Assembly: GCA_963694315.1 (NCBI GenBank)
Contig: CAVOCU010000002.1
Location: 1-50,083, forward strand
Source of the DNA: Dehalococcoidia bacterium
GTDB taxonomy: Bacteria; Chloroflexota; Dehalococcoidia; Lucifugimonadales; UBA1127
DNA: 50,083 bases
Reading direction: 5' to 3'
The notes under the pieces were generated by a model. It saw nothing but the letters and a program-made list of their open reading frames with translations, ran no database searches and was not told where the DNA came from. Position numbers and translations under genes: made by a program. Shown piece by piece: positions 18,458 to 45,082 of this stretch. Position 1 is the stretch's first letter, and each line of letters begins with the position of its first letter.

Positions 18458-19489
18458 TTACGCAATGACTACCTGGGGCCCATCGCCGACAGGAGCCACG
18501 TCACCAACCACAATCGCCTCCGGGATACTGGCACAGACGGAAGCAATGTCACCTGGGGCCACTGCCACAATCATGCCGATGCCCATATTAAAGACGCGGT
18601 TCATCTCTTCTGCGCCCACCTTGCCCTGTTGTTGGATGAGTTGGAAGAGTGGGGGAACTTCCCATGTGCTGCTGTCCAATCGCGCAGCCACGCCCTCCGG
18701 CAGCATCCGAGGAACATTGTCGGTAAACCCGCCGCCCGTGATGTGCGCCATGCCCTTGATGCGGTCCAACACTGGCGTTAGCTGGGCTACGTACGACATG
18801 TGGGGAACCAGGAGTGCATCGCCCAGCGTCACGCCAAGCTCTGCTGTGTACTTGCTAAGAACCGTTGGATCGTCGTCAATGCCGAAGATGCGCCGGACCA
18901 GCGAGTACCCGTTGGTGTGCAGACCGTTAGACGGGAGGCCCACGAGCACGTCGCCTGCAACGATGCCAGCACCGTCAATTACAGCATCACGTTCCACAGC
19001 GCCCACCACAAATCCAACCAGTTCCACATCTTCGCCAACATACATGCCCGGCATCTCGGCAGTCTCGCCACCAATGAGGGCGCAGCCCAGAGCTTTGCAG
19101 GCATTCGCCATGCCAGAAACCAGGGATTCCACCTTCTCTGTAGATAGCGTGGCCATGCCCATATAGTCCAAGAAGAAGAGGGGCTTGGCGCCACACGTCA
19201 GAATATCGTTGGTGGTGTGGTTAACAATGTCTATACCCACGGTATCGTAGCGGCCCATGAGGCTGGCAATGCGGAGCTTGGTGCCAACGCCGTCCGTGTG
19301 GGCTACCAGGACAGGGTCTTTGTACCCCGCTACTTGATAGAGCGCGCCAAAGGCTCCAATGTCTCCCAGGACGCCGGGGGTGAAGGTGGATCTGGCGAGT
19401 TTGAAGATGCGGTCTTTCGCACTACCCGCGACATCACGGTCTACTCCGGCACCCTTGTAGACCTCTTCAGACACGGGTTGCTCCTTCAT
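18458..19489 (-). CDS. purM: Phosphoribosylformylglycinamidine cyclo-ligase (AIR synthetase)
   Basis: Contains YKGAGVD and THTDGVGTK, with a PurM N/C domain layout. Confidence 0.95.
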   Translation of the reverse strand: MKEQPVSEEVYKGAGVDRDVAGSAKDRIFKLARSTFTPGVLGDIGAFGALYQVAGYKDPVLVAHTDGVGTKLRIASLMGRYDTVGIDIVNHTTNDILTCGAKPLFFLDYMGMATLSTEKVESLVSGMANACKALGCALIGGETAEMPGMYVGEDVELVGFVVGAVERDAVIDGAGIVAGDVLVGLPSNGLHTNGYSLVRRIFGIDDDPTVLSKYTAELGVTLGDALLVPHMSYVAQLTPVLDRIKGMAHITGGGFTDNVPRMLPEGVAARLDSSTWEVPPLFQLIQQQGKVGAEEMNRVFNMGIGMIVAVAPGDIASVCASIPEAIVVGDVAPVGDGPQVVIA

Positions 19490-24160: not shown

Positions 24161-24202
24161 GCCAGACCCAGACGTATATGCGCTGCGACGAGGAGACTAA
24201 AG
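24161..24202 (-). repeat. Single A-type repeat unit next to the tsaD stop
   Basis: GCCAGACCCAGACGTATATGCGCTGCGACGAGGAGACTAAAG. Confidence 0.7.
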
Positions 24203-24220
24203 CCACCCGTTAGGCCAAGC

Positions 24221-25330
24221 TCAGTCTTGTGGGGCCAGGCTCAGCCTGGGGTTGGCGTCCACTGCCAAGGTGGGCTGGAGGCCTCGCTGCATACCGTAGA
24301 ACGCCGCTGCGGCAATCATAGCGCCGTTGTCCGTGCACAGCACCAGGCGAGGGATGACCACAGGAACCGGTGACTTCTCCCGGATAGTTGCCCTTAGCAA
24401 TGCGTTGGCTGAAACGCCGCCGCCCACCACAATCCCTCTGGCGGCATATTGTTCAACGGCCTCCAGCGTTTTCCCTACCAGCACATCCACCACCGCGTCC
24501 TGGAACCCTGCAGCCAGAGCCTTTCGCTGCTCTTCACCAGCTTCGGCCAGGCCCTCAGACCTGTCCCCTCCATATGTCGCTGCGGCGAGGGGACTAAAGC
24601 CCGCGCCCTGGTCAGGAACGCCCTGGTCTACGCCCACCGCCACGCCAAGCTCCTTGGCTTTCCTCAGCAGTGCAGTCTTGAGGCCGCTGAAGCTGAACTC
24701 CAAGGTGCCACGCATCCACGGTCTAGGCAGGGGCTCAGAGCGTGTTGCCAGGGCCGCCTCGCGCTGGACTGCCGGCCCGCCGGGGTAGCCGAGGCCTAAT
24801 ACTCGCGCCGCTTTATCAAAAGCCTCTCCCGCTGCATCGTCACGGGTGCTGCCCAGGAGTTGGTAATCGCCGTGACCTCGCATCAGAACCAGCTCCGTGT
24901 GCCCGCCGGACACCAGCAGACAGACCATAGGGAAGCCTATAGCCTCCTCTGGCGTGGGGCCTTCCTCAAGCCAGCCCGCGTACATGTGTCCTTCAAGGTG
25001 GTTCATGCCGTACAGAGGCACTCCAAGGCCCATAGCGATGCCTTTGGCGTAGTTCACGCCCACCAGGAGAGAACCCGCCAGTCCGGGGCCAGCAGTGACC
25101 GCTACAGCGTCTAGATCGGTGGGGGCCACGCCAGCCTCGGCGAGGGCAGCGCGGTAGATGGGGGTGATGGCTAGCATGTGCTGTCGTGACGCGACTTCCG
25201 GGACGACGCCACCGTAGCGGGCGTGCACCTCGACTTGGGAGCTGATGACGTTGGAGAGGATGATACGTCCGTCACGGACAACAGCAACAGCCGTTTCGTC
25301 GCAGGAGGTCTCAATGCCAAGTACTAGCAT
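24221..25330 (-). CDS. tsaD: tRNA N6-adenosine threonylcarbamoyltransferase
   Basis: Contains [22 protein letters not shown] and CTDNGAMIA. At 369 aa it is about 30 aa longer than usual because of an internal insert. Confidence 0.93.
24548..24628 (-). repeat. Repeat element (D-like / A / D-like modules) inserted in frame inside tsaD
   Basis: 24571-24599 is CATATGTCGCTGCGGCGAGGGGACTAAAG, a perfect A unit. In the gene sense it is translated as FSPLAAATY (residues 245-253). The flanks resemble D modules. Confidence 0.8.
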
Positions 25331-26010: not shown

Positions 26011-26034
26011 AGTCGAGTCGCGTCTTCATGATAG

Positions 26035-26083
26035 CATGTGTCGCTGCGGCGAGGGGACTAAAGACGCAGCCGGATAGCTAAAG
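26035..26083 (-). repeat. Two repeat units between the TPP-decarboxylase beta gene and the PP2C-like gene
   Basis: CATGTGTCGCTGCGGCGAGGGGACTAAAG followed by ACGCAGCCGGATAGCTAAAG. It abuts the stop codon at 26084. Confidence 0.85.
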
Positions 26084-26647
26084 CTACGAAGCGGCAAAGG
26101 TCTTGCGGAACCGTTGGAGGTTGTCCTCAAGGGAGACCTCGGGTCGATTCGGCTTGTCCCCGCCTTCAACGTCTGCCACGATGCACCACGGGCCGTCCTC
26201 CGTCATAGCGCGGTCAAACATCTCCTCCAGAGCCTCTAGCGTAGACACAGCTTCCACCTTCGGAATACCAGCGCCCTTCGCTATAGCGGCAAGGTCAGTG
26301 ACGCCTGCCGTGTGTGTTGGCTGACCGCCCGTCCCTGCCCACTGGTGGTTGTCCCACACAATATGGATCATGTTGCGAGGGTTCTGTCGGGCAATGGTGC
26401 CTAGCGAGCCCAGGTTCATCAGCAGTGAGCCATCGCCGTCCATGACAATAACCTTGCGGTCAGGCGCAGCAAGGGCTACGCCAAGGCCTATGGATGATGA
26501 CAGCCCCATTGCCCCCCAGGTGTACAGGTTGGCATCCCGTTCCTCAGACAGGTTGTGAAGGTGGAACGTAGTACCTCCCAGGTTGGCGATGATAGGTTCA
26601 TCTTTCACGCGATCTAGAACTGACTGGATGGCATCAAGCCGGAGCAT
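26084..26647 (-). CDS. TPP-dependent decarboxylase beta subunit (sulfopyruvate decarboxylase ComE-like; PP domain)
   Basis: Contains the TPP motif VMDGDGSLLMNLG...N. I chose ATG 26647 because AGGAGG lies 5 nt upstream. Confidence 0.7.
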   Translation of the reverse strand: MLRLDAIQSVLDRVKDEPIIANLGGTTFHLHNLSEERDANLYTWGAMGLSSSIGLGVALAAPDRKVIVMDGDGSLLMNLGSLGTIARQNPRNMIHIVWDNHQWAGTGGQPTHTAGVTDLAAIAKGAGIPKVEAVSTLEALEEMFDRAMTEDGPWCIVADVEGGDKPNRPEVSLEDNLQRFRKTFAAS

Positions 26648-27146
26648 CGCGGCCTCCTGTGAGCAGAGTTGAGAGGAGATTGGCAACGGGCAATCGTCCG
26701 GCGTAGCAGAGTGCTATCCCGCCTTTGATGATTGCGTCCAACTCGTCCTCTCTGGTAAGGCTGAAGTACTGCAACCCCAACGAATCAAGAATGCCGGGTA
26801 TGGCCCTGGCACCAGGAACCTGCGCCATGTTGAACTCGCCGGGCCCGCCTCGCATACCAATGAACATGGGGAAGGGGATGCGTGAGGGGATGTTCAGTGT
26901 AGCCAGCGCGTTGATGCAGTTGCCAAAGCCGCTGCTCTGCATGAAGACCGCGCCGCACTTTCCGGCAGCGTATGCCCCGGAGATAATGCCGATAGCTTCC
27001 TCTTCTCGAGAGGAAGGCACCATATGGAAGAAGGGGTCCTGTTCCATTTTGCTGAGGATGCGCCAGGTAATCCCGTCAGGGACGTAGGCAATGATGCTGA
27101 CGTCCGCGTCTTTAAGACCCTGGATGATTTGATCTGCCCAGGCCAT
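26634..27146 (-). CDS. TPP-dependent decarboxylase alpha subunit (sulfopyruvate decarboxylase ComD-like; PYR domain)
   Basis: PYR-domain pattern SREEEAIGIISGAYAAGKCGAVFMQSSGFGN. I chose ATG 27146 because AGGAG lies upstream. It overlaps the beta-subunit start by 14 nt. Confidence 0.7.
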   Translation of the reverse strand: MAWADQIIQGLKDADVSIIAYVPDGITWRILSKMEQDPFFHMVPSSREEEAIGIISGAYAAGKCGAVFMQSSGFGNCINALATLNIPSRIPFPMFIGMRGGPGEFNMAQVPGARAIPGILDSLGLQYFSLTREDELDAIIKGGIALCYAGRLPVANLLSTLLTGGRDAPA

Positions 27147-27280
27147 ATAGCTACTCCTGTTGCAGGATTCTCCTGCTCCTGATCCCTTGCACAATGATTA
27201 GGCAGGGACAGCTTAGGACAAACCAGCGTGAAGGGCTAGCCCTGAACCCTCTTCCTGCGATTGCCTAGGGGTCGGTTGGG

Positions 27281-27354: not shown

Positions 27355-27995
27355 GTGCCGGCGTCAGCGCCCGTTGGGGAGCTAGAAGCTTCTGGCCTGA
27401 TGGCGTCCGCTCCAGCATCGGCGGGTCTGTCAGCGGTTCGGCTGCGAGCGCCTGTTGCTATACCAGCGGCCCTGTCAAAGCCAGCGGAGGCCCTGTCCAT
27501 TGCGCCCTTTGGACGCAGCCCTCGGTCACGTTTGAGGGGAAGTGGCACCACATCGATGCTGCTGGCATCAACCCACTGCCCGTCCAGCGACCCATCCCGG
27601 TCTGGTTCGGTGGCGGCGCCGACGCCCTACTCCGACGTATTGCCAGGATGGGTGACGGGTGGATTAGGGAGCCGCAGGTGCAGACGCGAAAAGAGAACCA
27701 GGCGATGCTTGACCGTTTGTTCGGTTTTGCCGAGGAGCTTGGTAGGGACCCCGCCAGCATTGGGATTGAAGGGCGCATAGAGTTTGTGGACAACCCGACG
27801 GAGCCGGCTGTGCTGGCTGCGTTACGCGACTGGCAGGACATGGGTGTGAACATCGTGACGTTGAGCACTAGGGCCGTTGGGCTGGACTCGCCCCAGGAGC
27901 AGATGAACGCCCTCAAGAAGTACATGAATGTTGCGATACCCTTTAGGTGCAGGGTCTTTAGCCCTCCGGCCCGCAGCGCACATGCCGGACTTTAG
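27355..27995 (+). pseudogene. Remnant of an LLM-class (luciferase-like, F420/FMN-dependent) oxidoreductase: C-terminal half only, with a frameshift
   Basis: ALWTQPSVTFEGKWHHIDAAGINPLPVQRPIPVWFGGGADALLRRIARMGDGWI matches the C-terminal half of LLM proteins. The upstream residues are plausible only in another frame (...PAALSKPAEALSIA...). A terminator hairpin sits where the N-terminal half should be. The 3' end runs into a repeat array. Confidence 0.6.
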
Positions 27996-28076
27996 TCTCC
28001 GCCAGAGGCGACACATAGGTCTGAGACTGGCCTGTGGGCCAGAGGCTTTAGTCTCCTCCACCACAGCGACAGACAG
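27941..28076 (+). repeat. Repeat array (units with cores at 27941, 27956, 27989 and 28046, plus a D module at 28024)
   Basis: Contains CTTTAGCCCTCCGGCCCGCAGCGCACATGCC, CTTTAGTCTCCGCCAGAGGCGACACAT, GAGACTGGCCTGTGGGCCAGAGG and CTTTAGTCTCCTCCACCACAGCGACAGAC. Confidence 0.85.
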
Positions 28077-28911: not shown

Positions 28912-28999
28912 ACATGTGTCTGGGGCTGGCCTGATGATCAGAGGGGCTGACTTCAGTCTCCGCCGGAGGCAAGACGTCTTTAGCCCCTTCGCCGCAGCA
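28912..28999 (+). repeat. Repeat array D-B-A (diverged)
   Basis: CATGTGTCTGGGGCTGGCCTGATGATCAGAGG, then CTTCAGTCTCCGCCGGAGGCAAGAC, then CTTTAGCCCCTTCGCCGCAGCATG. Confidence 0.8.
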
Positions 29000-29105
29000 T
29001 GAGGATGATAGGGTGAGGCGACGATATGGTCAATGCTTTGTGGTGTCTCGACCTCCCTCCATGAGGGGACTACCCTATGGACTGTAAATTTTAAGGAGGT
29101 GTCCA

Positions 29106-29417
29106 GTGGCGATTATTCGTCGCAGAGTGTTCTACGCAAAGATTGGCAAGGCGGACCCCCTGGTAGCTCTGATGAAGGAAGCTGACGGACTGATGCAGAG
29201 GGCTGGCTTCTCATTCAAGAGCCGTTATCTGACCGATTGCATATCTGGTCGCAGCGATAGGGTCATCATGGAGTGGGAAATAGAGGACGTAAGTGAGATT
29301 GCTGCTCTGTACCAACCCCTTGGGAGTCCTGCGGTTCAGTCAGCTTTCAAGGACTGGCAAGGCAAAATGAACGAGATGGTTGAGTACTCAGAGGTGGAGA
29401 ACCTGGCTATTCGTTAA
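29106..29417 (+). CDS. Hypothetical protein, possibly a small alpha+beta barrel
   Basis: Clean 103-aa ORF with a GTG start and AGGAGG upstream. I recognise no family with confidence. Confidence 0.5.
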   Translation: MAIIRRRVFYAKIGKADPLVALMKEADGLMQRAGFSFKSRYLTDCISGRSDRVIMEWEIEDVSEIAALYQPLGSPAVQSAFKDWQGKMNEMVEYSEVENLAIR

Positions 29418-29418
29418 C

Positions 29419-29524
29419 CAGGCCAGAGGCTTTAGTCTCCCGGCCCACAGGCCGCATACGGCTTTAGTCTCCGCCGGAGGCAATATTGCCTTTAGTCCCC
29501 TCGCCGCAGCGACACATGTCTGGG
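29419..29524 (+). repeat. Repeat array D(truncated)-C-B-A filling the whole gap between convergent stop codons
   Basis: CCAGGCCAGAGG, then CTTTAGTCTCCCGGCCCACAGGCCGCATACGG, then CTTTAGTCTCCGCCGGAGGCAATATTGC, then CTTTAGTCCCCTCGCCGCAGCGACACATGTCTGGGG. Confidence 0.9.
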
Positions 29525-30688: not shown

Positions 30689-31600
30689 TTACTGAGGCGA
30701 CAGGACAAAGAACCGACCGGCAGGTTTCGATGGGTCTGGCTGATAGACGTAGGACGATCCTAGGAGGAGCTCCTCCTCGTAGAGCACCTCTTCGTGGTCG
30801 TCGTAGTTGACGGTCACCGCATAGACATCATCGTGCTGGGGGTACAACTTCGCATACCCGTGTCTGTTGGTCCTGAATCGGCCTACCCCCAAAACGGCAA
30901 CTTTGGCACCATGGACTGGTACGCCCTGATCGTTAAGGATTCGCAACCATGTGGTCCTTCCGGGGAATAGCTGCCCGTAAACGAACCGCTTGATCCTCCC
31001 GAAGGGTCCCGGAACAAACCCCTTGCCAATGCTGACTAACACGTCCTTCTCGTACCCGATCTGTTTGGGCGTCACCCAGTCCGGTCCGTATTTGATCTCC
31101 AGGTATTCCTCAGGTGGATTGGGAACCAGGAACGTCGACCCGATGAACGGGGCTTCCTTGAGGTTGGTGAACAGGCTGGTGGGGAACCAGACCCCCGGAT
31201 AGTGGTACACCTTCCCATCAACCACCCGCATGATATACAAGTCAGTCTTCTGGTTTTCTTTGAGCAGCGCTAGATTGACATAGCTGCTGTTTTCATCCTC
31301 AACCTTTACGTAATACCCGTTGTCACGAAGCGCTTTGATTAATGGGTCAATGGATGCTTCCGTGAAGCCGTGAAGTCCGAAGACAATACCGAGATCAAGG
31401 TCATCGTCCCAGGGGATGAACGCGTGGTCACGGACAGCGCCGAGGCATGTGCCCTGCCGAAGGAAAAAGACTATGCCAAGCCCGTCGAGAATCCGTTTGA
31501 GTTCTATGAGCAGCTTCCCGGCGATGGCAACGTCCATCGCCGGAATGGTCCGATTCAGCCTGTCGAGCGTCTCTGCGTCACTGCTCTCGTTTGCGTCCAT
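30689..31600 (-). CDS. LicD-family nucleotidyl/phospho-alcohol transferase with extra C-terminal beta-rich domain
   Basis: Contains the LicD signature GTCLGAVRDHAFIPWDDDLDLGI. Confidence 0.7.
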   Translation of the reverse strand: MDANESSDAETLDRLNRTIPAMDVAIAGKLLIELKRILDGLGIVFFLRQGTCLGAVRDHAFIPWDDDLDLGIVFGLHGFTEASIDPLIKALRDNGYYVKVEDENSSYVNLALLKENQKTDLYIMRVVDGKVYHYPGVWFPTSLFTNLKEAPFIGSTFLVPNPPEEYLEIKYGPDWVTPKQIGYEKDVLVSIGKGFVPGPFGRIKRFVYGQLFPGRTTWLRILNDQGVPVHGAKVAVLGVGRFRTNRHGYAKLYPQHDDVYAVTVNYDDHEEVLYEEELLLGSSYVYQPDPSKPAGRFFVLSPQ

Positions 31601-31695
31601 ACATAGCTCCTTGGGCTCGTCGCCACCCGGGTCAACCGTATTGGCGACCTCCTAGAAGGTTCCGATTTGGCACTTGCCACAATGGGCAACTGATG

Positions 31696-32286
31696 CTAGA
31701 TGCCCAGCTTGTCAGCCAGCATCGCGCGGATCTCTTCAACGGTGGCGCGCTGCCATGCGGGATAGCGCTCCACCAGGCGAGGTCGGGACACCTTACGCAC
31801 TTCGGCCTCTTCCGTGCCAGCGGGAAGCTCCTTGCGCGCCTCTTCTATGAACTGCTCGGTCTCCTGGTAGCCGATGGCAGGCTTCTCAATCCAGTGGCAC
31901 TGGTACACGCCCGCTGCGGTGTAGAAGATGACCGTGGGGATGGAGCGGAACTCGCCACGGTTCAGGAACTCGTCGGCAATGTCCAGGTTCTCATCGCGAG
32001 GGAAGACGCGTAGCTCAATGCCCGCTGCTTTTGCAATACGCGTGAACACCGGCAACCCGCGATACACGTCTGGGCACCAGTCCTCGCCCACCACCAGCAT
32101 TTTCGCAGCGCCGCTCTGGGCCGCCTTGGTGAAGAACGCCACGTCGTCAGCGTTGAGGACATCGGTGGAGGTCTCTGTGTACTCCTGGAACTTGTCGTGG
32201 TTTACCTTAATCTGTGCAATGTAGTCGCTGTACGTGAACCCAGATGCGTACCGCTCTGGTGTTACTACGCTTGTCTGCTCTGCCAT
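31696..32286 (-). CDS. Thioredoxin-fold family protein (single-Cys WCPD motif)
   Basis: Contains VVGEDWCPDVYRGLP and IPTVIFY. I chose ATG 32286 because AGAGGAGAA lies upstream. The track's extra 88 N-terminal residues overlap the Grx-like gene in another frame. Confidence 0.65.
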   Translation of the reverse strand: MAEQTSVVTPERYASGFTYSDYIAQIKVNHDKFQEYTETSTDVLNADDVAFFTKAAQSGAAKMLVVGEDWCPDVYRGLPVFTRIAKAAGIELRVFPRDENLDIADEFLNRGEFRSIPTVIFYTAAGVYQCHWIEKPAIGYQETEQFIEEARKELPAGTEEAEVRKVSRPRLVERYPAWQRATVEEIRAMLADKLGI

Positions 32287-32380
32287 GTTGTTCTCCTCTT
32301 TGCTTTTGCCTGTGTATGGGAACCACCGTGGGTAAACCGTCAGGTCAGGTATATCCCGCAACGCGGGACTAGATGATTGC

Positions 32381-32596
32381 TCAGCCCCATTCCCCTTCAA
32401 ACCCCTCTTCAACCCTACCGCCAGGATGGATGATGAGGGGGACCGACTCGCCGTACCCGCGGGCTTCGTCCATGAATACCTGGTTTTCTTCGACTTCCCG
32501 TTCTTCGAACTCGATACCCCGCTCCCGCCACGCAACGCGTAGCTGTTCACAGGTGGGTCAGGTGCGCATCGTGTAGACGATGGTCATAGTGGGCAT
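32381..32596 (-). CDS. Glutaredoxin/NrdH-like small redox protein with in-frame TGA at the first active-site position (candidate selenoprotein, U-P-T-C)
   Basis: Hand translation: MPTMTIVYTMRT-TGA-PTCEQLRVAWRERGIEFEEREVEENQVFMDEARGYGESVPLIIHPGGRVEEGFEGEWG*. GGAGGA lies 5 nt before ATG 32596. TGA is at 32558-32560. The Grx-fold landmarks (CxxC position, cis-Pro VP, G-rich end) are all in place. Confidence 0.6.
32524..32557 (-). promoter_or_regulatory. Candidate bacterial SECIS-like structure downstream of the Grx-like TGA
   Basis: Sense sequence is CCCACCTGTGAACAGCTACGCGTTGCGTGGCGGG. The outer stem is CCC-CC/GG-GGG and the apical mini-hairpin is ACGC-GUU-GCGU, placing G/U in a loop about 22-24 nt after the UGA. 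Folded by eye only. Confidence 0.3.
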
Positions 32597-32702
32597 TGTT
32601 TCCTCCAATGTGGTGAATAGATGATAGTTCACTGGGCCCAATTGATTATGCGGAATGGTACACCCGTAGGAGAGAGCCTGTCACGAGTGCTAGGGGAGCG
32701 TT

Positions 32703-34181
32703 CTAGGGGAGGTTAAGCGCGGCTGCGTCGGCTGCGGGGAGGATGACGTCGGTGGCGTTCTCAATGATGTTCACCAGCGGTTCAGGGTAGACGCCTAACA
32801 AGATGACAATAATTACCAGGACACCAACCAGCCCGTACAGGAGGTTGGGCACCTTGATTGCGCCTTCTTCGCCGTCCGCTGCCGGACTGATGTACATCTG
32901 TCGCACAACGTTCAGGTAGTAGTAGAGGGAGATGAGGCTGGCAACCATTGCCACACCCGCCAGCCAGAGCAAGTCCTCTGCCGCCGCTGCGGAGAAGAGG
33001 TAGAACTTGGTGACAAACCCCGCCAGGAACGGTAGACCCGCCAGTGAGAACAGCGATACGGTGATGGCTGCTGCCAGGAACGGCGAGCGACCCGCCAGCC
33101 CGGCGAAATCTACGATGTCTTCTTTGCCGGTGACGTTGTAAAAGGCGGTGATGGCGAAGAACACGGCCAGATTGGTAGCTGAATACCCTACAAGGTGCAC
33201 CATCAGGCCGTTGGATGACAGGGTTGATAGTGAGGCGATGCCCATGAGCAGAAAGCCCACCTGCCCCACGCTGGAGTACGCCAGCATACGTTTCACGTTG
33301 GTCTGTGCCAGGGCTACCAGGTTGCCGAAGAGCATGGTCAAGGCCGCCAGTCCGGCAATGAGTACGTTCCATTGGTCAATGGCGGGCAGGAGCCCTTCTG
33401 CGAAGAGCCGTAGCACCAGCGCAAAGGCAGCAACTTTAGACCCCACGGCAATGTATGCCGTTATCGGCATCGGAGCGCCCTCATAGACGTCCGGGGCCCA
33501 CATGTGGAAGGGCACTGCTGCCATCTTGAAACCCAGGCCGGAGATCAGCAGCGTTAGGCCTATCAGCAGCCTGCCATCAATGTCCTCAATGCCCTCAAGC
33601 GCAACGGCCATCTCCGCGAAGCTGGTGGTACCCAGCGCGCCGTACAGCATAACGATACCGTAGAGCAGCAACCCTGAGGAGAATGCTCCAAGCAGGATGT
33701 ACTTCACCGATGCCTCGTTCGACTTGCTGTCGTGTAGGGCGAAGCCGCTGAGAATGTAGAGACAGAAGCTCAACAACTCGAGAGATAGGTAGGCGGTTAG
33801 AAGTTCACCGGAAGCTGCCATCATCATCATGGCCAGCACGGAGAGCAGGATGATTGCGTAGTACTCGCCGGGGTGCGTCAGGTAGCGACCAACGAAGTGG
33901 ATGGAGCCAAGTATCACCGCGCCGCCGATGGCCATAGATAACACCTTGAAGAAGAGAGCGTAATCGTCAACGCGATAGAGGCCGTTGAAGAGGCTATCGG
34001 TCTCGTTCATTAGGTGCGGGATGGTGAAGGCCAGAATACCCGCCAGGCCAATGACGGACACCCACGCCAGGATGTTCTTCCGCTCTGGGCGCAGGAAGAA
34101 GTCCAACGTGAAAATGACAAAGGCCAGCCCTGCTACCAGGAACTCCGGCCAAAGCAATTCAAAGCGTACTTCTGCTGGCAT
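32703..34181 (-). CDS. nuoN: NADH-quinone oxidoreductase subunit N
   Basis: 492-aa polytopic antiporter-like subunit at the last position in the nuo cluster. Confidence 0.9.
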   Translation of the reverse strand: MPAEVRFELLWPEFLVAGLAFVIFTLDFFLRPERKNILAWVSVIGLAGILAFTIPHLMNETDSLFNGLYRVDDYALFFKVLSMAIGGAVILGSIHFVGRYLTHPGEYYAIILLSVLAMMMMAASGELLTAYLSLELLSFCLYILSGFALHDSKSNEASVKYILLGAFSSGLLLYGIVMLYGALGTTSFAEMAVALEGIEDIDGRLLIGLTLLISGLGFKMAAVPFHMWAPDVYEGAPMPITAYIAVGSKVAAFALVLRLFAEGLLPAIDQWNVLIAGLAALTMLFGNLVALAQTNVKRMLAYSSVGQVGFLLMGIASLSTLSSNGLMVHLVGYSATNLAVFFAITAFYNVTGKEDIVDFAGLAGRSPFLAAAITVSLFSLAGLPFLAGFVTKFYLFSAAAAEDLLWLAGVAMVASLISLYYYLNVVRQMYISPAADGEEGAIKVPNLLYGLVGVLVIIVILLGVYPEPLVNIIENATDVILPAADAAALNLP

Positions 34182-34227
34182 CTATTTACACTCTACCTGT
34201 CATAGTTACTAGTCTAGCCTCGTATTT

Positions 34228-34255
34228 ATATATCGCTGCCGCGCGGGGACTAAAG
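34228..34255 (-). repeat. Single A-type repeat unit in the nuoM/nuoN gap
   Basis: ATATATCGCTGCCGCGCGGGGACTAAAG. Confidence 0.7.
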
Positions 34256-34289
34256 ACTCCGCGCATCCTCGCCCGTAGGGCTTGCCCTG

Positions 34290-35798
34290 TTAGCTGCCAA
34301 ACCTTTCCATGATTGGAACCACGCCACTGTCGATGATCTCGACGATACGGAAGGGATACAGCCCCCACAGGAGCAGGAAGCCCGTTAGCATGACAGCAAC
34401 GCCCGTTTCCAAGCGGTTAGCGTCCTCCAGATCCTTCCAGCGGTTGTCAATGGGGCCAAAGAATACCTTGCCCAACAATCGGAGGATGTACACCGCAGTG
34501 ATTGCCGCGCCTATCACCCCCAGGATTGCCAGGATGGGGTAAGTCCGGTACGTGCCGATGAACACCAGGAGTTCCGCCACAAAGCTGCTGAACCCTGGGA
34601 GACCCAAGGACGTCAGTCCCGCAACCGCCAGGAACACCCCTGTGATGCCCATGCGCTTGCCAAGACCCTCCAGGAGGGTGATGTCCCGGATGTGTGTTCG
34701 TTGATAGATGATGCCTACCATGGCGAAGAAGAGGGCCGTCATAATGCCGTGGGAGAACATCTGAAGCACTGCGCCGTCCACTGCCAGGACATCAAGGGTG
34801 CCTAGGCCCATGAGGACGTACCCCATGTGGCTGACGCTTGAGTAACCAATGACGTACTTCAAGTCCTTTTGACCAAGCGCAGAGATAGCACCATAGAGGA
34901 CGTTCACCGTGCCCAACCCAATGAGGGTGGGAGCCCAGAACTGCGCCCCTTGCGGCAGAATGACCATGCCCACTGCCAGGATGCCGAAAGCCCCTAGCTT
35001 CATGAGCACGCCTGCGTGAAGCATGCTGACGGCGGTTGGCGCGGCTACGTGACCGTCTGGCGACCACGTATGGAAGGGCCATAGACCCGCCAGGATGCCA
35101 AAGCCAACCATCAGGAACGGGTAGTAGAACTTCTGGAAGCCCTCTGAGAACTTCACCTGCGCCAACCCTGCGATGCTGAAATCGGCGATGCCGGTAATCT
35201 CACTGGCCTCCATCCACATTGCCAGGATGGCAATCCAGACAAGGACGCTGCCAGCCACCAGCACCAGCATGACCTTCATTGCGCCGTACTCTTTGGTACG
35301 GAGGAAAGTGCCGAAGTCTGTGCTGCTGCCCCACACGCCAACCAGCAGGTACATGGGTACCACGGCCAGCTCGTAGAAGAAGAACAGGAAGAAGAGGTCT
35401 TGGGCGGCGAACACGCCATAGACTCCAGCCACCAGCAGCATCAACCAGATAAAGAAGTCCTTGGGTCTATGGGTCACGTTCCAGGAAATCAGCACACCAC
35501 CAAAGAAAATAATCGCGTTAAGCAGCATCAGCGGTACCGTGATGCCTGAGAGGCCCAGGGTGAACCGGATGCCAAGGGATGGCAACCAGTCGAAATCTAC
35601 TGTGTATTTAGTAAGGTCGCCGTTGGTGTCAAAGGTGATGAACAAGTATGCGGCGATGGCCAGCCCGACGGCTGCGATGATCCTGGTATACCAGTGAATC
35701 ATGATATGCCTGTCCGCAGGGAAGAACGCCAGGCCAATGGCGCCAAAGAAGGGAATCGCCACAAGCGCGAAGATGAGGACGCTGTCTATCCCGTTCAT
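34290..35798 (-). CDS. nuoM: NADH-quinone oxidoreductase subunit M
   Basis: Antiporter-like subunit. ATG 35798 forms an ATGA overlap with the nuoL stop. The track ORF starts at TTG 35810. Confidence 0.9.
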   Translation of the reverse strand: MNGIDSVLIFALVAIPFFGAIGLAFFPADRHIMIHWYTRIIAAVGLAIAAYLFITFDTNGDLTKYTVDFDWLPSLGIRFTLGLSGITVPLMLLNAIIFFGGVLISWNVTHRPKDFFIWLMLLVAGVYGVFAAQDLFFLFFFYELAVVPMYLLVGVWGSSTDFGTFLRTKEYGAMKVMLVLVAGSVLVWIAILAMWMEASEITGIADFSIAGLAQVKFSEGFQKFYYPFLMVGFGILAGLWPFHTWSPDGHVAAPTAVSMLHAGVLMKLGAFGILAVGMVILPQGAQFWAPTLIGLGTVNVLYGAISALGQKDLKYVIGYSSVSHMGYVLMGLGTLDVLAVDGAVLQMFSHGIMTALFFAMVGIIYQRTHIRDITLLEGLGKRMGITGVFLAVAGLTSLGLPGFSSFVAELLVFIGTYRTYPILAILGVIGAAITAVYILRLLGKVFFGPIDNRWKDLEDANRLETGVAVMLTGFLLLWGLYPFRIVEIIDSGVVPIMERFGS

Positions 35799-37666
35799 GC
35801 CACCCACCAAGCCAGGGCGATGCCAAGGAAGCCGACGAACATGCCCATTGCATAGGTGTAGAGCTTGCCGTTCTGGACGTAACGCATCAGTCGGCCGGTG
35901 GTGGTTGCGATTGCGCCTGTGCCGTTGACACCAACGTCGTTGATGATAGCGCGGTCAAAGAAGGCCACAAAGCGGCCTGTCACCAGTACCACCTTATCAA
36001 TGAGCCACTGGTAGACCTCGTCAACGTAGTACTTGTTGATGAGCACTCGGTGGACACCGCTGAACCGTCGAATTATGGGCTCCGTCTTCAGGCTTCCCTG
36101 GATGTACGCAAGCCACGCCAGAAGGAAGCCGCTTATCGCCAGGGCTATGGAGCCGATGGCGATGCCCTTGTTCAAATGGAATGCCTCTTGGTGCTCGCCT
36201 GCGAACACGAAGTAACCGAAGCCCTGGTAGGCGTCAGTGTAGTTCAGCGCCATAAACCCGATGGTGAGGGCCAGGAAGGCAAAGATGAGCATCGGAGCAA
36301 GCATCACAACCGGTGATTCATGGGCGTGTTCGTTCTCAGGCTGCAGCTTGCCAAAGAAGACTGCAAAGAACACCCGGCTCATGTACAACGCCTTCATGAA
36401 GCCAATCAGTAGGGCAATCGACATGAAGAACAAGCCCCTGCCGTCAAACACGGCAAGGATGACCTCGTCTTTGCTGAAGAACCCGCCGAATGGCGGTATA
36501 CCTCCAAGAGACAGCGCGCCAATCCCAAAAATGATGGCCGTGATGGGCATCTTGCGCCACAGGCCACCCATCTGCCTGATGTCTGTCTGGCCGCTCCCGT
36601 GGGAAATGCTGCCAGCCCCAAGGAACAGGATTGCCTTGGAGAAGCCGTGTACTAGGAGGTGGAACATGCCAGCAGTGACGCTGCCTGCGCCAAGGGCAAA
36701 CATCATGAAGCCCAAGTCTGTCAGCGTTGAATACGCCAGAATTCGCTTGATGTCTGTCACTACCAGGGCTATTGCGGCCGCGCCTATGGCAGTGAATGCC
36801 CCAATGAGCGTCACCATCAACGCAGCCGATTCTGAATGCTCGTAGAAGGGGAACATACGGGCCACTAGGTATACACCTGCCACAACCATGGTGGCAGAGT
36901 GAACCAGAGCGCTTACCGGGGTTGGGCCTTCCATGGCGTCTGGCAGCCAGACGTGGAGTGGGAACTGGGCCGACTTGCCGATGGCTCCCAGGAAGAGCAG
37001 CACCGCCGCCGCTGTTATGACAGTGTCTGACAGGCTGCCGTTCTCCACCATTGCGAAGATGGCCGAGAGTTCAAAGGTGCCTGTCTTGGCGAAGAGCAGA
37101 AGGATGCCGATGAGGAGCCCAACATCGCCGATGCGAGTCGTTATGAAGGCTTTCTTGGCTGCTTCGGCTGCCGATCTCCGCTCATAGAAAAAGCCGATGA
37201 GCAGGTAGCTACAGATGCCTACCAACTCCCACGCGATATACAAGAGCAGCAGGTTGTCGGCCAGCACCAGCGTCAGCATGGCTGCGGCGAACAGGGAGTG
37301 TACAGCAAAGAACCAGGTGAATCGGGGCTCATGGGCCATGTAGCTCCAAGTGTAGACCTGAATACCAAGAGCCGCCGCAGTGACCAGGCCCAGCATGACA
37401 AGAGAGATGGGGTCTATGACCATGCCCCAGGTGAAGACAGACCCTCCCGCTTTCATCCAGTCAAAGCTGTAGCCAAAGGCTTTAACTTCCGGCAAGGACT
37501 CCATGGAGAGCCAGTCAGCCAGCACAAACCAGAAGAGGACAAAGCCTATCGCCATCGTCCCTGTGGCTGCAATTGCAGACCAGTTGGGAAGACGTCGACC
37601 AGCCGTCGCCAAAAAGAAGAAGGCGATAGCAGGCAGTAACGGAATGAGCCAGGCGTATTCCATCAT
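35795..37666 (-). CDS. nuoL: NADH-quinone oxidoreductase subunit L
   Basis: 623-aa antiporter-like subunit with a long C-terminal extension. Confidence 0.92.
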   Translation of the reverse strand: MMEYAWLIPLLPAIAFFFLATAGRRLPNWSAIAATGTMAIGFVLFWFVLADWLSMESLPEVKAFGYSFDWMKAGGSVFTWGMVIDPISLVMLGLVTAAALGIQVYTWSYMAHEPRFTWFFAVHSLFAAAMLTLVLADNLLLLYIAWELVGICSYLLIGFFYERRSAAEAAKKAFITTRIGDVGLLIGILLLFAKTGTFELSAIFAMVENGSLSDTVITAAAVLLFLGAIGKSAQFPLHVWLPDAMEGPTPVSALVHSATMVVAGVYLVARMFPFYEHSESAALMVTLIGAFTAIGAAAIALVVTDIKRILAYSTLTDLGFMMFALGAGSVTAGMFHLLVHGFSKAILFLGAGSISHGSGQTDIRQMGGLWRKMPITAIIFGIGALSLGGIPPFGGFFSKDEVILAVFDGRGLFFMSIALLIGFMKALYMSRVFFAVFFGKLQPENEHAHESPVVMLAPMLIFAFLALTIGFMALNYTDAYQGFGYFVFAGEHQEAFHLNKGIAIGSIALAISGFLLAWLAYIQGSLKTEPIIRRFSGVHRVLINKYYVDEVYQWLIDKVVLVTGRFVAFFDRAIINDVGVNGTGAIATTTGRLMRYVQNGKLYTYAMGMFVGFLGIALAWWVA

Positions 37667-37670
37667 TGAG

Positions 37671-37691
37671 CCAGGCCAGCCCTATATGTGA
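37671..37691 (-). repeat. Partial D-type repeat module just upstream of the nuoL start, in the 139-bp nuoK/nuoL gap
   Basis: GCCAGGCCAGCCCTATATGTG. Compare the reverse complement of CATATACAGGGGACTGGCCTG. Confidence 0.5.
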
Positions 37692-37805
37692 TGCCCTTAG
37701 ACAATCCAGTCTCCTGATTTCTAATCTTTACCAGAGACAACCACGCTCGTTCAAACCCTGAGTCATTTATTCTCAAGAAGAGTCCTGAGCACGCTCTGAC
37801 CCTGG

Positions 37806-38111
37806 TTACCACTTCATTGAGTCGGCTTCATCAACATTGGCCGTCGCCCTGGCCCTGTAGAGGCGCAGGATGATGGCCATTGCCAGTGCCACCTCCGCTG
37901 CAGCCACCGTGATGACAAAGATCGTAATCACCTGGCCTACCAGTCGCGATGGGTCAAGGAACGCCGCGTAGGCTACTGCGTTGATGTTCACAGCGTTCAA
38001 CATCAACTCAATCGACATCAGGATCATCACCGCGTTCCTACGGGCCAGCACACCATAGACGCCTATGGCGAAGAGGGCTGCGCTTAGGAGTTCAACGTGA
38101 TATAGCTCCAT
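37806..38111 (-). CDS. nuoK: NADH-quinone oxidoreductase subunit K
   Basis: 101 aa with three TM helices, in the canonical position. Confidence 0.9.
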   Translation of the reverse strand: MELYHVELLSAALFAIGVYGVLARRNAVMILMSIELMLNAVNINAVAYAAFLDPSRLVGQVITIFVITVAAAEVALAMAIILRLYRARATANVDEADSMKW

Positions 38112-38680
38112 TAGCTCCGTTCCTCTGGTGTCTGGTCATTGGCCCCATCGGTACCCGTCAGGGAACGTGGGTCCAGAGTATCGCCCTGGCCCTGCCCGTC
38201 TGATGCTCGAGCCAGAATAATCGCGCCAATGAGGGCCATCAATAGAACCAGTGAGGCTATCTCAAAGGGCAAAACCCAGTTGGTGAAAAGCTCTGTGCCC
38301 AACCCTTCAAGGCTTGGGCCAGCGAGCTCTTGTGTATCGAGTTTGTTGTTGAGGATGACACCGGCCATCACACCAAGGAAGCTCAGCGCAGCTACAGCGG
38401 CAACGGCCCATTGGGGGTTGTCGCGGACATTGGAGAATTCCTCAGCGCGAGTCAGCATCAGCGCGAACAGAAGCACGATGGTGATGGCACCCCCGTAGAT
38501 GAGCACCTGCACCAAGGCCAGAAACTCAGCCATCAGGAGGATGAACACCCCGGCTACAGAAACCAGACTTAGGAGCAGAAAAAGGGCCGCATGGGCCACG
38601 TTGCGTGTGGTCACCACGCCTATCGCGCCACCTAGCACCATTACCGCCAGGAAGGTAAAGGCTACCGCACTGGCATCCAC
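38111..38680 (-). CDS. nuoJ: NADH-quinone oxidoreductase subunit J
   Basis: 189-aa membrane subunit between nuoI and nuoK. Confidence 0.88.
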   Translation of the reverse strand: MDASAVAFTFLAVMVLGGAIGVVTTRNVAHAALFLLLSLVSVAGVFILLMAEFLALVQVLIYGGAITIVLLFALMLTRAEEFSNVRDNPQWAVAAVAALSFLGVMAGVILNNKLDTQELAGPSLEGLGTELFTNWVLPFEIASLVLLMALIGAIILARASDGQGQGDTLDPRSLTGTDGANDQTPEERS

Positions 38681-39312
38681 TACTTGGCCTCCTCTACAGG
38701 GGGCTCTTTAGTCTCCGCACCGGCAGTCGTGTCATTAGCTGGCGCATCTTTAGTTTCTGTAACATCACCGGCAGACGCAGAAACGGCTTTAGTCTCTTCG
38801 CCGACAGGTGCAGTAGCAGCAGCCTTTGCAGCAGCTATAGCGGCTTTCTTAACCTCAGGGGCTATCCAGTTGGACTCAGCCTGATACTTCTTACCCATCT
38901 CCAACAGCACCGGTAGGTCTGACCTACGCCCGTCACGGGCATAGTGGCTGATTTCGTGCTCGTGGCTCATTTCAATGGCGTCAAAGTTGCAGACCTCAAC
39001 GCACAGGCCGCACAGAATGCAGCGACCTAAGTTAATCTCAAACTCTTCAATAATCTTGCGGCGGGTGCTCTTCCCCTCAGCGTGAAGAGGGTTGTCAATC
39101 ATCGTGCCGGACATACACTGCGTGGGGCACATGCGCACGCACACCATGCAGCCAACGCAGTACGGTTCACCCACCTTTGCGTCCCAGGTCAGGGCCGGGA
39201 ACCCAACTTGCCGTTCCATGAGGGGCAAGTGCTGCTTGGGGTACTGGGCAGTCACTGGCTTCCGCAGCGATGTCTGCAGGGTCATTAACATGCCCTTCAA
39301 CGTACTAAGCAC
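38680..39312 (-). CDS. nuoI: NADH-quinone oxidoreductase subunit I (2x[4Fe-4S]) with a C-terminal low-complexity extension of about 50-60 aa
   Basis: Contains CVGCMVCVRMCP and CILCGLCVEVCNFDAIEM. The tail is ...KKAAIAAAKAAATAPVGEETKAVSASAGDVTETKDAPANDTTAGAETKEPPVEEAK. Confidence 0.92.
   Translation of the reverse strand: MLSTLKGMLMTLQTSLRKPVTAQYPKQHLPLMERQVGFPALTWDAKVGEPYCVGCMVCVRMCPTQCMSGTMIDNPLHAEGKSTRRKIIEEFEINLGRCILCGLCVEVCNFDAIEMSHEHEISHYARDGRRSDLPVLLEMGKKYQAESNWIAPEVKKAAIAAAKAAATAPVGEETKAVSASAGDVTETKDAPANDTTAGAETKEPPVEEAK
38706..38830 (+). repeat. Three degenerate CTTTAGT-core units embedded in the 3' end of nuoI, read as E-T-K
   Basis: Cores at 38706-38713, 38748-38755 and 38787-38794, spaced 42 and 39 nt apart. 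The third unit, CTTTAGTCTCTTCGCCG, matches the unit at 5543 for 17 nt. Confidence 0.55.
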
Positions 39313-40465
39313 GGCGCACCTCCCTTGCTGGAATCAGTCTTACGGTTGGCCGTACCTTCTTGGATGCTGTTTTCATATAGATAAACGTGCTGGCAGCTAC
39401 GAGCGTTGTCAGACTCAAAACCGTCTGAACCCAGTTTGGCCACCCGTAGAAGAGCGCAAAGGCCACCATCAGGAAGTTCAGAAAAGAGAGAGGTACCAAC
39501 CCCTGCCAACCAAACGCCATGAGTTGGTCAATACGCAGTCGTGGGAGCGTGCCTCGTAGCCAAAAGATAACAAGAATTACCGAGTAGCACTTGATGAGGA
39601 ACCAGGCCAGCTCTGGCAGCAACGGCCCGGACCAACCGCCAAGGAAGAAAATTGTGACCAGTGCAGCTACCAGGAACGTGTTGATGTACTCAGCAAGGAA
39701 GAATATGGACCAGTGTGCGCCGCTGTACTCGATGAACGGGCCGCCAACCAGCTCCGATTCCGCCTGGAAGATATCGAAGGGGCTGCGCCCCACCTCTGCC
39801 AGCCCCGCCAGCAGGAAAATGACCAAAGCCAGTGGTTGGAGAAGGATGTACCAGGTGTTGCCCTGACCCATAGCAATCTCCGTCAGGTTCAACGTTCCCG
39901 CCAGCATCGCAATGGTGATGGCAATGACAAGCAGAGGTATTTCGTAACTAATTAGTTGGGCAGCACTCCGTAGTCCGCCAATTATGCCGTACTTGTTGGC
40001 AGAGCCCCAGCCAGCCATGAGTAGTCCAATGAGGGACATCCCGGACAGCGCCAGGACGTACAGCAGGCCAAGGGACATGTCCGTCAGGACAAGGCTTGAA
40101 GTAAAGGGAACCGCAATCCACACGGCAAAACTGGGTATAAAGACTGCTAGTGGAGCCAGCCAGTAGACCGGCCGATCAACCCATGCTGGCATAATGTCTT
40201 CTTTGATGAGGAGCTTTAGGCCGTCGGCTATGGGTTGGAGCAGGCCGTAAGGGCCAACTCGCATCGGCCCCATGCGTTGCTGAATGCGAGCCAACGCTTT
40301 GCGCTCAACCCACGTGAGGGAGAGCACAACCACGCTGAGAATGGTCAGCAGGGACAGGGACTTAATCAGGATGTAAACAACGTCTTCTCCGCCGTATCCG
40401 ATGGCCAGGCCTACGATTGCCAGGAGTGCAGCCAGAACAACGCCCAGGGGAATGAGGAGAATCAT
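39305..40465 (-). CDS. nuoH: NADH-quinone oxidoreductase subunit H
   Basis: 386-aa ND1-like membrane subunit. Its start overlaps the nuoD stop by 4 nt. Confidence 0.92.
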   Translation of the reverse strand: MILLIPLGVVLAALLAIVGLAIGYGGEDVVYILIKSLSLLTILSVVVLSLTWVERKALARIQQRMGPMRVGPYGLLQPIADGLKLLIKEDIMPAWVDRPVYWLAPLAVFIPSFAVWIAVPFTSSLVLTDMSLGLLYVLALSGMSLIGLLMAGWGSANKYGIIGGLRSAAQLISYEIPLLVIAITIAMLAGTLNLTEIAMGQGNTWYILLQPLALVIFLLAGLAEVGRSPFDIFQAESELVGGPFIEYSGAHWSIFFLAEYINTFLVAALVTIFFLGGWSGPLLPELAWFLIKCYSVILVIFWLRGTLPRLRIDQLMAFGWQGLVPLSFLNFLMVAFALFYGWPNWVQTVLSLTTLVAASTFIYMKTASKKVRPTVRLIPAREVRRA

Positions 40466-41580
40466 CGATCCACCTCTCCAAGGACGATGTCCAGAGAGCC
40501 GAGGATCATGACAGCATCTGCTACGTAGACGCCGCGCAGCATAGTGCGGAGCGCCTGAAGGTTGGCAAATGAGGGTGCCCGCACCTTGAGGCGATACGGT
40601 TTGTCTCCACCGTCAGTGACTATGTAGACACCCATCTCGCCGCGGGGTGTTTCTGATCGGAAGTAGACCTCTCCTGCAGGTGGGCGAGGGATGCTTCGGA
40701 CGCCGGTGGCCTTGGTAGGGCCGTCGTCAGGCATCTGTTCCAATGCTTGTTTGATGATGCGAATGGATTGGCGCATCTCTTCCACGCGCATGGCGTATCG
40801 ATCCCAGGTGTCGCCGGTGTTGCCAAGGGGGATATCGAAATCGAATCGGTCATAGACGGAGTAGGGCTCAATCACGCGAATATCGTCTGGAATGCCGGAA
40901 GCACGTAGCGATGGCCCGGTTAGGCCGTAATCCAGTGCGTCCTGGCCGTTGATAATCCCAACGTTCCTTGCACGGGCAAGGAAGACCTCATTGTAGGTGA
41001 GCAGCTTATCGCCTTCCTCAATACCCTTCTCCAGGGCAGGGAGGATGCCTGCTACACGCTCGGCGAAATCGTCCGGTGGGTCTTCACGCAATCCGCCAAT
41101 GCGGAAGTAGTTGTGCATCATCCGTGCGCCGCTGGTGGCTTCAAAGAGGTTCTGGATGCGCTCACGCTCACGAAAGCCGTACATGATAGGCGTCATAGCT
41201 CCGGCGTCCAGGCCCATAGTGCCGTAGAAGAGCATGTGGCTGGAGATACGGTTAAGCTCGCAGAGGATGACCCGGATGTACTCGGCGCGTTCAGGGACGG
41301 TGATGCCCATGACCTTTTCAACAGTGGAGCAGATTGCCAACTCCATGTTGTAGTTGCCAATGTAGTCCATGCGGTCAAATAGCGTGATGATCTGGGGGTA
41401 AAGCTCACCCTCGCACAGCTTCTCGGAACCGCGGTGGAGGTAGCCAATGTGGGGTTCTGCTTCAACGATGCGCTCGCCGTCTACCCAAAGCACCATGCGA
41501 AAGACTCCATGGGTTGATGGGTGCTGAGGCCCCATGTTGACCATGATGTCTACGGATTCAAGCCGCTGCGCTTCAGTCAT
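40462..41580 (-). CDS. nuoD: NADH-quinone oxidoreductase subunit D
   Basis: NMGPQHPSTHGVFRMVL...GYLHRGSEK, 49-kDa subunit family. Confidence 0.95.
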   Translation of the reverse strand: MTEAQRLESVDIMVNMGPQHPSTHGVFRMVLWVDGERIVEAEPHIGYLHRGSEKLCEGELYPQIITLFDRMDYIGNYNMELAICSTVEKVMGITVPERAEYIRVILCELNRISSHMLFYGTMGLDAGAMTPIMYGFRERERIQNLFEATSGARMMHNYFRIGGLREDPPDDFAERVAGILPALEKGIEEGDKLLTYNEVFLARARNVGIINGQDALDYGLTGPSLRASGIPDDIRVIEPYSVYDRFDFDIPLGNTGDTWDRYAMRVEEMRQSIRIIKQALEQMPDDGPTKATGVRSIPRPPAGEVYFRSETPRGEMGVYIVTDGGDKPYRLKVRAPSFANLQALRTMLRGVYVADAVMILGSLDIVLGEVDR

Positions 41581-41612
41581 ACCCTACAGTCTCTTGTGAT
41601 TGTGGCATGGGC

Positions 41613-41653
41613 AGGGGGTGCCCTTATAAGCGTTGTTCATAGAGGCACCCCCT
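41613..41653. other. 10-bp GC-rich stem with a 21-nt loop in the OFOR-beta/nuoD gap
   Basis: AGGGGGTGCC...GGCACCCCCT. No U-tract follows it in the minus-strand sense, so it is not a canonical terminator. Confidence 0.4.
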
Positions 41654-41706
41654 ACACCGTGCTGTGATTCAAATGTTTTTGCCCTTGGGCAACCTGTGGC
41701 GGTCGG

Positions 41707-42591: not shown

Positions 42592-42604
42592 ATCAGCTTC
42601 CTCC

Positions 42605-44383: not shown

Positions 44384-44490
44384 ACACTTGCTCCTCTATG
44401 CACTGTTCCTGACAATCACCACTTGATAGATAACTAGGAGAGTATACGGGGAAACACTTTGGACGTATACCTCTGTTCTCTATCTAAGGC

Positions 44491-44519: not shown

Positions 44520-44593
44520 CTATATCTTAGCTGCTAGTTATATTCCCCACATGGGGCACGGCGCCCCGCACCCCACGCGAGAGCGAGAAGCGT

Positions 44594-45040: not shown

Positions 45041-45082
45041 GAGCGCTTCGCCTCTTTTGTCCAAACCCGGTCCCAGGGGGGC

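Follow-up and report, generated by a model that had tools for sequence, protein, structure and literature searches.

Between nuoN (32703..34181) and a gene for a Thioredoxin_9 protein (31696..32286), the minus strand of the window, as the whole 50,083-nucleotide stretch of DNA analyzed here is called, carries a small glutaredoxin-like gene that is absent from the ORF track. From 32596 to 32381, this strand reads MPTMTIVYTMRT, an in-frame TGA (32560..32558), PTCEQLRVAWRERGIEFEEREVEENQVFMDEARGYGESVPLIIHPGGRVEEGFEGEWG and a second TGA (32383..32381), with the stretch between both TGAs starting with PTCEQ and ending with GEWG. The translation given for this segment in an earlier note on the sequence was reproduced exactly on re-translation. 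A Shine-Dalgarno sequence, GGAGGA, is present on the minus strand at 32601..32606 as announced there, however, it is located 4 nt and not 5 nt before the ATG; GGAGG or GGAGA is conserved in relatives. The long ORF 31696..32550 found in the track represents, as previously proposed, an out-of-frame upstream extension of the Thioredoxin_9 gene, whose true start is ATG 32286.

The two TGAs are referred to as UGA1 (32558..32560, codon 13) and UGA2 (32381..32383, codon 72). Translation and alignment confirmed that UGA1 occupies the first Cys position of a CxxC motif, so that the motif would read U-P-T-C with selenocysteine (Sec) as residue 13. UGA2 had been taken as the stop codon of a 71-codon gene ending at 32381, a gene model that is corrected here to 75 codons followed by TAG (32369..32596, minus strand), with a second Sec near the C-terminus: MPTMTIVYTMRT-U-PTCEQ...EGEWG-U-AII-stop. 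Very probably, the gene runs from 32596 to 32369 and encodes the candidate motifs U13-P-T-C and G-U72-A-I-I.

The neighboring gene (minus strand) encodes a 196-residue protein belonging to Thioredoxin_9 (PF14595, E = 1.2e-22) with the one-Cys motif W-C-P-D-V. Across the loci compared, the motif W-C-x-D-V is invariant and no second conserved Cys is found. The Thioredoxin_9 gene adjoins the glutaredoxin-like gene in the window clade as well as in the loci L013, L019, L014, L020 and L021, with the gene order reversed in L014, L020 and L021, in which the glutaredoxin-like protein is of the all-Cys type. Upstream, a distance of 106 bp separates nuoN from the glutaredoxin-like gene, as stated earlier, and this spacer contains the promoter-like sequence GTGACA-N18-TACCAT (32655..32684, minus strand), the sole match resembling a sigma-70 promoter in 31600..32800. 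Across 8 related loci, its two hexamers show little or no change, in contrast to the variable spacer sequence around them. Based on this conserved putative promoter, independent transcription is predicted and the glutaredoxin-like gene appears to have its own promoter. The proposal that the pair is co-transcribed with the nuo operon is not needed and has become less likely, given the promoter-like site and the fact that distant relatives keep Thioredoxin_9 and not nuoN; adjacency to nuoN is restricted to the close clade. It should also be noted that the motif CCTGACGG (32337-32344, minus strand) in the spacer between the two genes is kept in the window, L001 and L004, in a spacer that is otherwise variable.

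Conservation of the two in-frame UGA codons

Relatives of the gene were compared as retrieved DNA and not as called proteins. A word-indexed protein search found one homologue while representative and profile searches reached further; at least 673 homologues have E <= 1e-5. Besides the window, 9 distinct loci carry UGA1 in frame, with protein identities of about 42-94% and with the sequence conserved on both sides of the codon. TGA at codon 13 is found in the window, L004, L006/7, L008, L009, L010/11, L012, L013 and L016. L004 is a Dehalococcoidia MAG (JAPYRQ01), and L006/7, L008, L009, L010/11 and L012 represent five further metagenome lineages. The distant TGA-bearing relatives are only about 42-52% identical to the window protein and carry the motifs U-N-A-S (L013) and U-P-T-C (L016). 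Among homologues of the Cys type, every full-length sequence obtained by exhaustive HMMER search has Cys at column 13, and Cys is found in 118 of 119 profile hits both at this column and at column 72. Nearly all homologues show either Cys or TGA at codon 13, and one population carries TGG. Two loci considered as N-terminally truncated Sec forms, L014 and L015, were rejected as such and are Cys forms with frameshifts.

The TGG (Trp) codon is confined to L001-3/L005, all from one marine population; L001 and L005 belong to the MAG CAJWXP01. It bears on the possibility that the gene is a pseudogene, or that faulty sequencing or assembly has placed a TGA in a glutaredoxin containing Cys or Trp, since P0001, the closest database protein (85% identical), has Trp at codon 13 and its DNA reads TGG, one transition away from TGA. 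Taken alone, P0001 could mean that the window carries a nonsense mutation; the DNA of the retrieved relatives, in which TGA recurs, settled this question. Identical TGAs are present in independent assemblies from ENA, JGI, NCBI and Logan, and the contigs carrying them differ at many synonymous sites and are therefore not a single mis-assembled sequence. The gene contains no frameshifts and no other stops, and dN/dS amounts to 0.06-0.22 at dS values of 0.3-1.0 in 28 pairs of the window clade. Further, TGA is found in L010/L011, which is closest to the TGG sequence, and this makes TGG the derived state. A private nonsense mutation or sequencing error, which the earlier note had named as a way for its interpretation to fail, is thus contradicted by recurrence and constraint, and we regard a pseudogene or an erroneous TGA as hardly credible.

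The Trp population differs from all other lineages in its partner gene as well. In L001 (10001-10930; also L002, L003 and L005), TGG takes the place of the first Sec codon while UGA2, the C-terminal tail and the hairpin following it are kept. The Thioredoxin_9 gene of this population is interrupted twice by an in-frame TAG, at codons 4 and 132, and shows 7 lineage-specific changes at otherwise invariant positions, compared with 0-3 in other lineages. These changes suggest a recent joint decay of both genes, although they represent one event only.

The sequence beyond the supposed stop was searched because the best NCBIfam match, Uxx-star, has a Sec a few residues before its C-terminus. The window reads GGC TGA GCA ATC ATC TAG, corresponding to G-U-A-I-I-stop, with the tail and the true stop (TAG, 32371..32369) located at 32369..32380 on the minus strand. 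G-U-x-I-x-stop is found in 10 of 10 distinct Sec-clade loci and the terminal stop can be TAG, TAA or TGA. Substitutions within the tail are in line with a coding sequence: in the Sec-clade loci, the first codon after UGA2 is GCA, GCC, GCT, TCC, GAG or CAC, the second ATC or ATT, encoding Ile without exception, and the third ATC, GTC, GGA or GCG, with the stop at one position in every locus. The pattern extends to relatives with an N-terminal Cys, specifically L017 (G-U-F-I-stop), L018 (G-U-E-I-G-stop) and L019 (G-U-H-I-A-stop). In total, 13 distinct sequences representing at least 5 deep lineages retain UGA2.

All-Cys homologues (n = 119) end predominantly in G-C-x-x-stop (93 sequences) or G-C-x-x-x-stop (25 sequences), mostly with GCFI, and the UGA2 column corresponds to the Cys of a G-C-x-I-(x)-stop ending in 118 of them. 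The alignment of UGA2 with this Cys indicates a Sec/Cys pair at the second TGA as well. Once the tail is included, the Uxx_star model is aligned over positions 2-68 of 70 and U72 falls on model position 68, which leads to the gene of 75 codons, 32596..32369. Based on these comparisons, TGA 32383..32381 very probably encodes a second Sec and does not act as a stop. Alternatively, only UGA1 may encode Sec, in which case TGA 32383..32381 would be the true stop of a 71-residue protein and the hairpin behind it a terminator or an mRNA-stabilizing stem-loop. Gene callers indeed stop the protein at UGA2, P0001 being an example, however, x-Ile-x-stop is kept in 13 distinct sequences with synonymous changes and varying stop codons, UGA2 aligns with a nearly invariant Cys of the all-Cys family and the Uxx_star alignment passes through the UGA2 position. 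We consider a single-Sec protein improbable, also in light of the hairpin described below.

Candidate SECIS elements and the decoding of UGA

Each of the two UGAs is followed by a predicted stem-loop with GU in its apical loop, and both are candidate SECIS elements based on sequence. Candidate SECIS 1 (32518..32553, minus strand) represents the minimum-energy fold and consists of the upper hairpin GCUACGC-GUU-GCGUGGC (32543..32527) and the lower stem CCUGU/GCGGG, with the loop starting +25 from the U of UGA1. The hairpin postulated earlier for this site is therefore recovered as the predicted fold, with GU in the loop and at the expected distance, but it is not more stable than shuffled sequence (z = -0.17 to -0.97). 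For the window clade, z-scores after UGA1 are not significant, and folding energies were therefore not counted as evidence. All 8 of the 8 clade sequences retain the upper hairpin, in which A-U pairs have changed to G-U and covariation is minimal; the lower stem is not retained in L010 or L001. The conserved nucleotides also encode the conserved residues L-R-V-A-W, and conservation of synonymous sites around SECIS 1 is not clearly above the gene-wide level. In the distant Sec form L016, a 9-bp hairpin with z = -2.8 is found at the matching distance after UGA1. Taken together, the homologue column, the recurrence of the TGA and the hairpin agree with the original proposal of an unannotated glutaredoxin-like gene in which a Sec-encoding UGA replaces the first Cys of CxxC.

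Candidate SECIS 2 (GUCCCGC-GUU-GCGGGAU; 32353..32369, minus strand) is located at and past the stop codon and would thus be untranslated. It shares the apex CGC-GUU-GCG with SECIS 1. Its loop starts +22 from the U of UGA2 in the window and +21 to +23 across 10 of 10 loci, and the GC-rich hairpin begins at or directly after the true stop in every locus. The stems, namely GUCCCGC, AGGAGGC, AGCCCGC, GACGGUCC, GGGGC and CAAGC, are unrelated in sequence and nonetheless complementary, with differences that compensate each other. Loops are GUU, GUC, GUA, CGUG and AGUU as well as CUUGC in L016, with GU present in 9 of 10. The conservation of the UGA2 hairpin is the strongest structural evidence of this analysis.

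If UGA2 were the true stop, the same hairpin might act in termination. In several loci, it is followed by 3-4 T, with TTT(T) in L001, L006, L008 and L010, and some SECIS 2 hairpins could double as weak terminators. However, a T run is absent in the window, L004, L009 and L013, a terminator scan at 32369..32353 returned no terminator in the window, and both the fixed distance between TGA and hairpin and the GU-containing loop point away from termination and toward UGA2 as a Sec codon. Within the window, a comparable hairpin follows 9 of 1664 TGA triplets by criteria set after the data had been seen, and UGA1 and UGA2 are the only in-frame codons among them; at the stops of other genes in the window such a hairpin was found in 0 of 48 cases. 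No SECIS or tRNA-Sec match was returned by Rfam for the whole window at the gathering threshold, nor at E <= 10 over 32300..32720, and two scans of the window for other read-through selenoprotein genes gave nothing convincing.

The SECIS of E. coli fdhF is a hairpin shortly after the UGA that is bound by SelB and exposes a G and a U in its apical loop. The candidate elements resemble the fdhF type in that a hairpin is located just after the UGA with an apical G/U about 22-25 nt downstream. They differ from it in that SECIS 2 of the window is untranslated, lying at or past the stop codon, and in their G-C-closed triloops (GUU, GUC, GUA), which no Rfam model matches. To our knowledge, textbooks reserve SECIS elements in the 3' untranslated region for archaea and eukaryotes.

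Genes for the Sec-decoding machinery (selA, selB, selD, tRNA-Sec) were found neither in the 50-kb window nor in any fetched locus. ARAGORN returned no tRNA of any kind for the window or 13 loci, and Pfam annotation of about 40 window ORFs gave no SelA, SelB or SelD. One ORF with an AIRS domain (18458..19489) was considered as SelD and rejected; it is located between purH-like and purF-like genes and is assigned to PurM. Dehalococcoidia MAGs have been listed with 46-49 selenoprotein genes (PMC13326102). The stop codons of 48 long window ORFs are TAG in 27, TAA in 15 and TGA in 6 cases, at a G+C content of about 57%. Such TAG-rich and TGA-poor stop usage, which is unusual for this genome composition, is also seen in related loci.

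In principle, a standard tRNA for Trp, Cys or Gly could decode the UGAs, or UGA could be reassigned, resulting in a protein without selenium. Points in favor of this are the population with TGG at codon 13 in a gene that is otherwise constrained, the fact that TGA is the rarest stop (6 of 48 ORFs) and the missing Sec machinery in the window and the fetched loci. However, TGA serves as an ordinary stop for 6 of 48 window ORFs and for several genes in relatives, which indicates that the genetic code is not reassigned. Both UGAs align with Cys of the catalytic type, the signature of Sec/Cys exchange, and not with Trp or Gly, and a hairpin is found at SECIS distance after each of them. The two nonsense codons in the partner gene of the Trp population suggest loss of function and not a tolerated variant. 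We therefore judge a selenium-free protein to be very unlikely. By comparison with its homologues, the gene very probably encodes a real bacterial selenoprotein in which UGA specifies two selenocysteines, with the UXX-star glutaredoxin-like selenoproteins as its diverged relatives.

Relation to UXX-star and other glutaredoxin-like proteins

With Cys substituted at the first TGA, the window protein matches the Pfam family Glutaredoxin (PF00462) with 33.8 bits against a cut-off of 22.9 (E = 3.8e-8). The score is above the gathering threshold and the redox motif is located at the start of helix 1. The glutaredoxin part of the Grx/NrdH-like fold assigned previously is thereby confirmed, but the NrdH label is not, as the NrdH-redoxin model TIGR02194 yields 23.7 bits against a cut-off of 85.75; TIGR02181 yields 22.5 against 90. 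The members of the window family share a small size, a CxxC motif and a thioredoxin fold with NrdH-redoxins and classical Grx3. Unlike them, they lack a C-terminal helix, with a tail containing Cys or Sec in its place, and their HMM scores are far below the respective cut-offs. An AlphaFold model of an all-Cys relative shows a glutaredoxin fold (pLDDT 87.7) with TM-scores of 0.72-0.76 to C. oremlandii cGrx1, BC3987 and NrdH, with the NrdH structures at about 0.73-0.75. The best match in the PDB, both by sequence and by structure, is 7c10, the dithiol form of Clostridium oremlandii Grx1.

The best NCBIfam match is NF041212, the Uxx-star glutaredoxin-like (seleno)protein model, at 39.7 bits, below its cut-off of 66. 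This model is the top match for all six proteins tested, with relatives scoring 38.5-55.1 bits. Besides NF041212, which describes a subfamily, the UXX-star models NF041114 (family 1), NF041211 and NF047338 were compared; here the window protein scores 23.6 against 72 (NF041114) and 23.7 against 100, and all scores are below cut-off. NF041114 family 1 corresponds to the distant Grx-like protein 1 of the GOS study, which has a UxxT motif and 2 Sec. The primary paper on the UXX-star families is reportedly that of Haft and Tolstoy from 2025; the comparison made here rests on the NCBIfam names and a review (PMC13188914).

Alike in UXX-star proteins and the window protein are the glutaredoxin fold, a length of about 70 residues and a Sec or Cys located a few residues from the C-terminus; as in family 1, the N-terminal redox motif of the window protein would hold a further Sec. 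However, this motif is U-P-T-C, an UxxC and not the UxxT of family 1, whose model requires at least 72 bits. The eponymous ending of two residues between Sec and stop is likewise not seen in the window, where three residues follow (U-A-I-I-stop), as they do throughout its clade; it is present in the relative L017 (U-F-I-stop) and, as C-x-x-stop, in 93 of 119 all-Cys homologues. Further differences are the scores below all curated cut-offs and the conserved Thioredoxin_9 partner gene. Judged by sequence, the window protein is UXX-star-like in its predicted working and not a member by the curated NCBIfam test, and its closest curated family is that of the Uxx-star glutaredoxin-like selenoproteins and not NrdH.

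Clostridial Grx1 is described in the literature as glutathione-dependent and as working with the selenoprotein MsrA. The C. oremlandii protein (UxxC) resembles the window protein in its glutaredoxin fold and in the Sec at the first CxxC position; it differs in that it has only one Sec and lacks a Sec-containing tail at the C-terminus, at an identity of about 27-30%. The class is cited as an experimentally studied Sec-glutaredoxin (PMC13188914). More generally, UxxC glutaredoxin selenoproteins and the glutaredoxin-like selenoproteins of marine metagenomes are established (PMC1794560, PMC2398784, PMC13188914), and selenoproteins of the distant Grx-like/UXX-star type with two Sec are known (PMC13188914, PMC2398784). 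For the Sec of UXX-star proteins, a role in binding metals or unknown substrates is considered possible (PMC13188914).

Proposed redox module and further features of the window

We hypothesize that the glutaredoxin-like protein and the adjacent one-Cys Thioredoxin_9 protein work together as a redox module encoded by two genes under their own promoter. U13 would replace the nucleophilic first Cys of CxxC, resulting in U-P-T-C, while U72 would be part of the conserved C-terminal tail G-U-A-I-I-stop. A separate SelB-type hairpin would serve each UGA, with a GUU triloop closed by G-C at a distance of about +22 to +25 nt; the first hairpin would lie inside the coding sequence, and the second, starting from the true TAG stop, would remain untranslated. 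SelB binding to these hairpins would result in the insertion of Sec, and not of another amino acid, at both UGAs. The C-terminal Sec may act as a mobile redox or ligand arm, with U72 exchanging with the U13/C16 center via a selenenylsulfide or diselenide and possibly also with Cys71 of the Thioredoxin_9 partner. Going further, the gene pair might represent an undescribed two-component selenium redox relay of marine Dehalococcoidia, in which a U13-U72 diselenide or selenenylsulfide would pass electrons or a metal or metalloid on to Thioredoxin_9 and the second Sec would be inserted via a bacterial SECIS located wholly in the 3' untranslated region. This full scenario is speculative and, as a whole, rather unlikely to be correct.

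Standard gene calling hides small selenoproteins, and the glutaredoxin-like gene described here was lost entirely. Public entries of the family annotated as glutaredoxin or hypothetical are often truncated selenoproteins, among them P0004, P0005 and P0012 (L017, L018 and L019, respectively) as well as P0002, P0015 and P0049; some of these entries are cut at the C-terminal UGA while others start after the N-terminal UGA. Glutaredoxin-like proteins with two candidate Sec residues would gain a branch that scores below the current curated models, and the conserved Thioredoxin_9 partner could guide functional work on it. The locus further provides a clear natural case in which a bacterial SECIS-like hairpin is positioned past a stop codon. 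What is known about Sec decoding would remain unchanged, and selenium-rich Dehalococcoidia have already been reported.

A number of other features were observed in the window. A dispersed REP-like sequence is repeated across more than a dozen intergenic gaps, in either orientation and frequently as an array of 2-3 tandem units. The unit of about 30 nt reads CTTTAGTCCCCTCGCCGCAGCGACACATG, with the variant CTTTAGTCTCCGCCGGAGGCNACAC, and is found at 3750-3856, 5510-5632, 6857-6936, 9200-9575, 24174-24604, 26032-26068, 27956-28066, 28930-29522, 34227-34260, 46177-46372 and 48283-48320. The nuo cluster (35795-45848) is without nuoE, nuoF and nuoG in the part seen in the window. Genes for a 2-oxoacid:ferredoxin oxidoreductase (42605-44383 and 41707-42591) are located between nuoC and nuoD; in L001, nuoC is directly followed by nuoD without these genes. 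Finally, two overlapping ORFs at 26084-27194 encode TPP_enzyme_N and TPP_enzyme_C separately. An identical split is found in L001, and the pair probably represents a genuine two-subunit TPP enzyme and not a frameshift.
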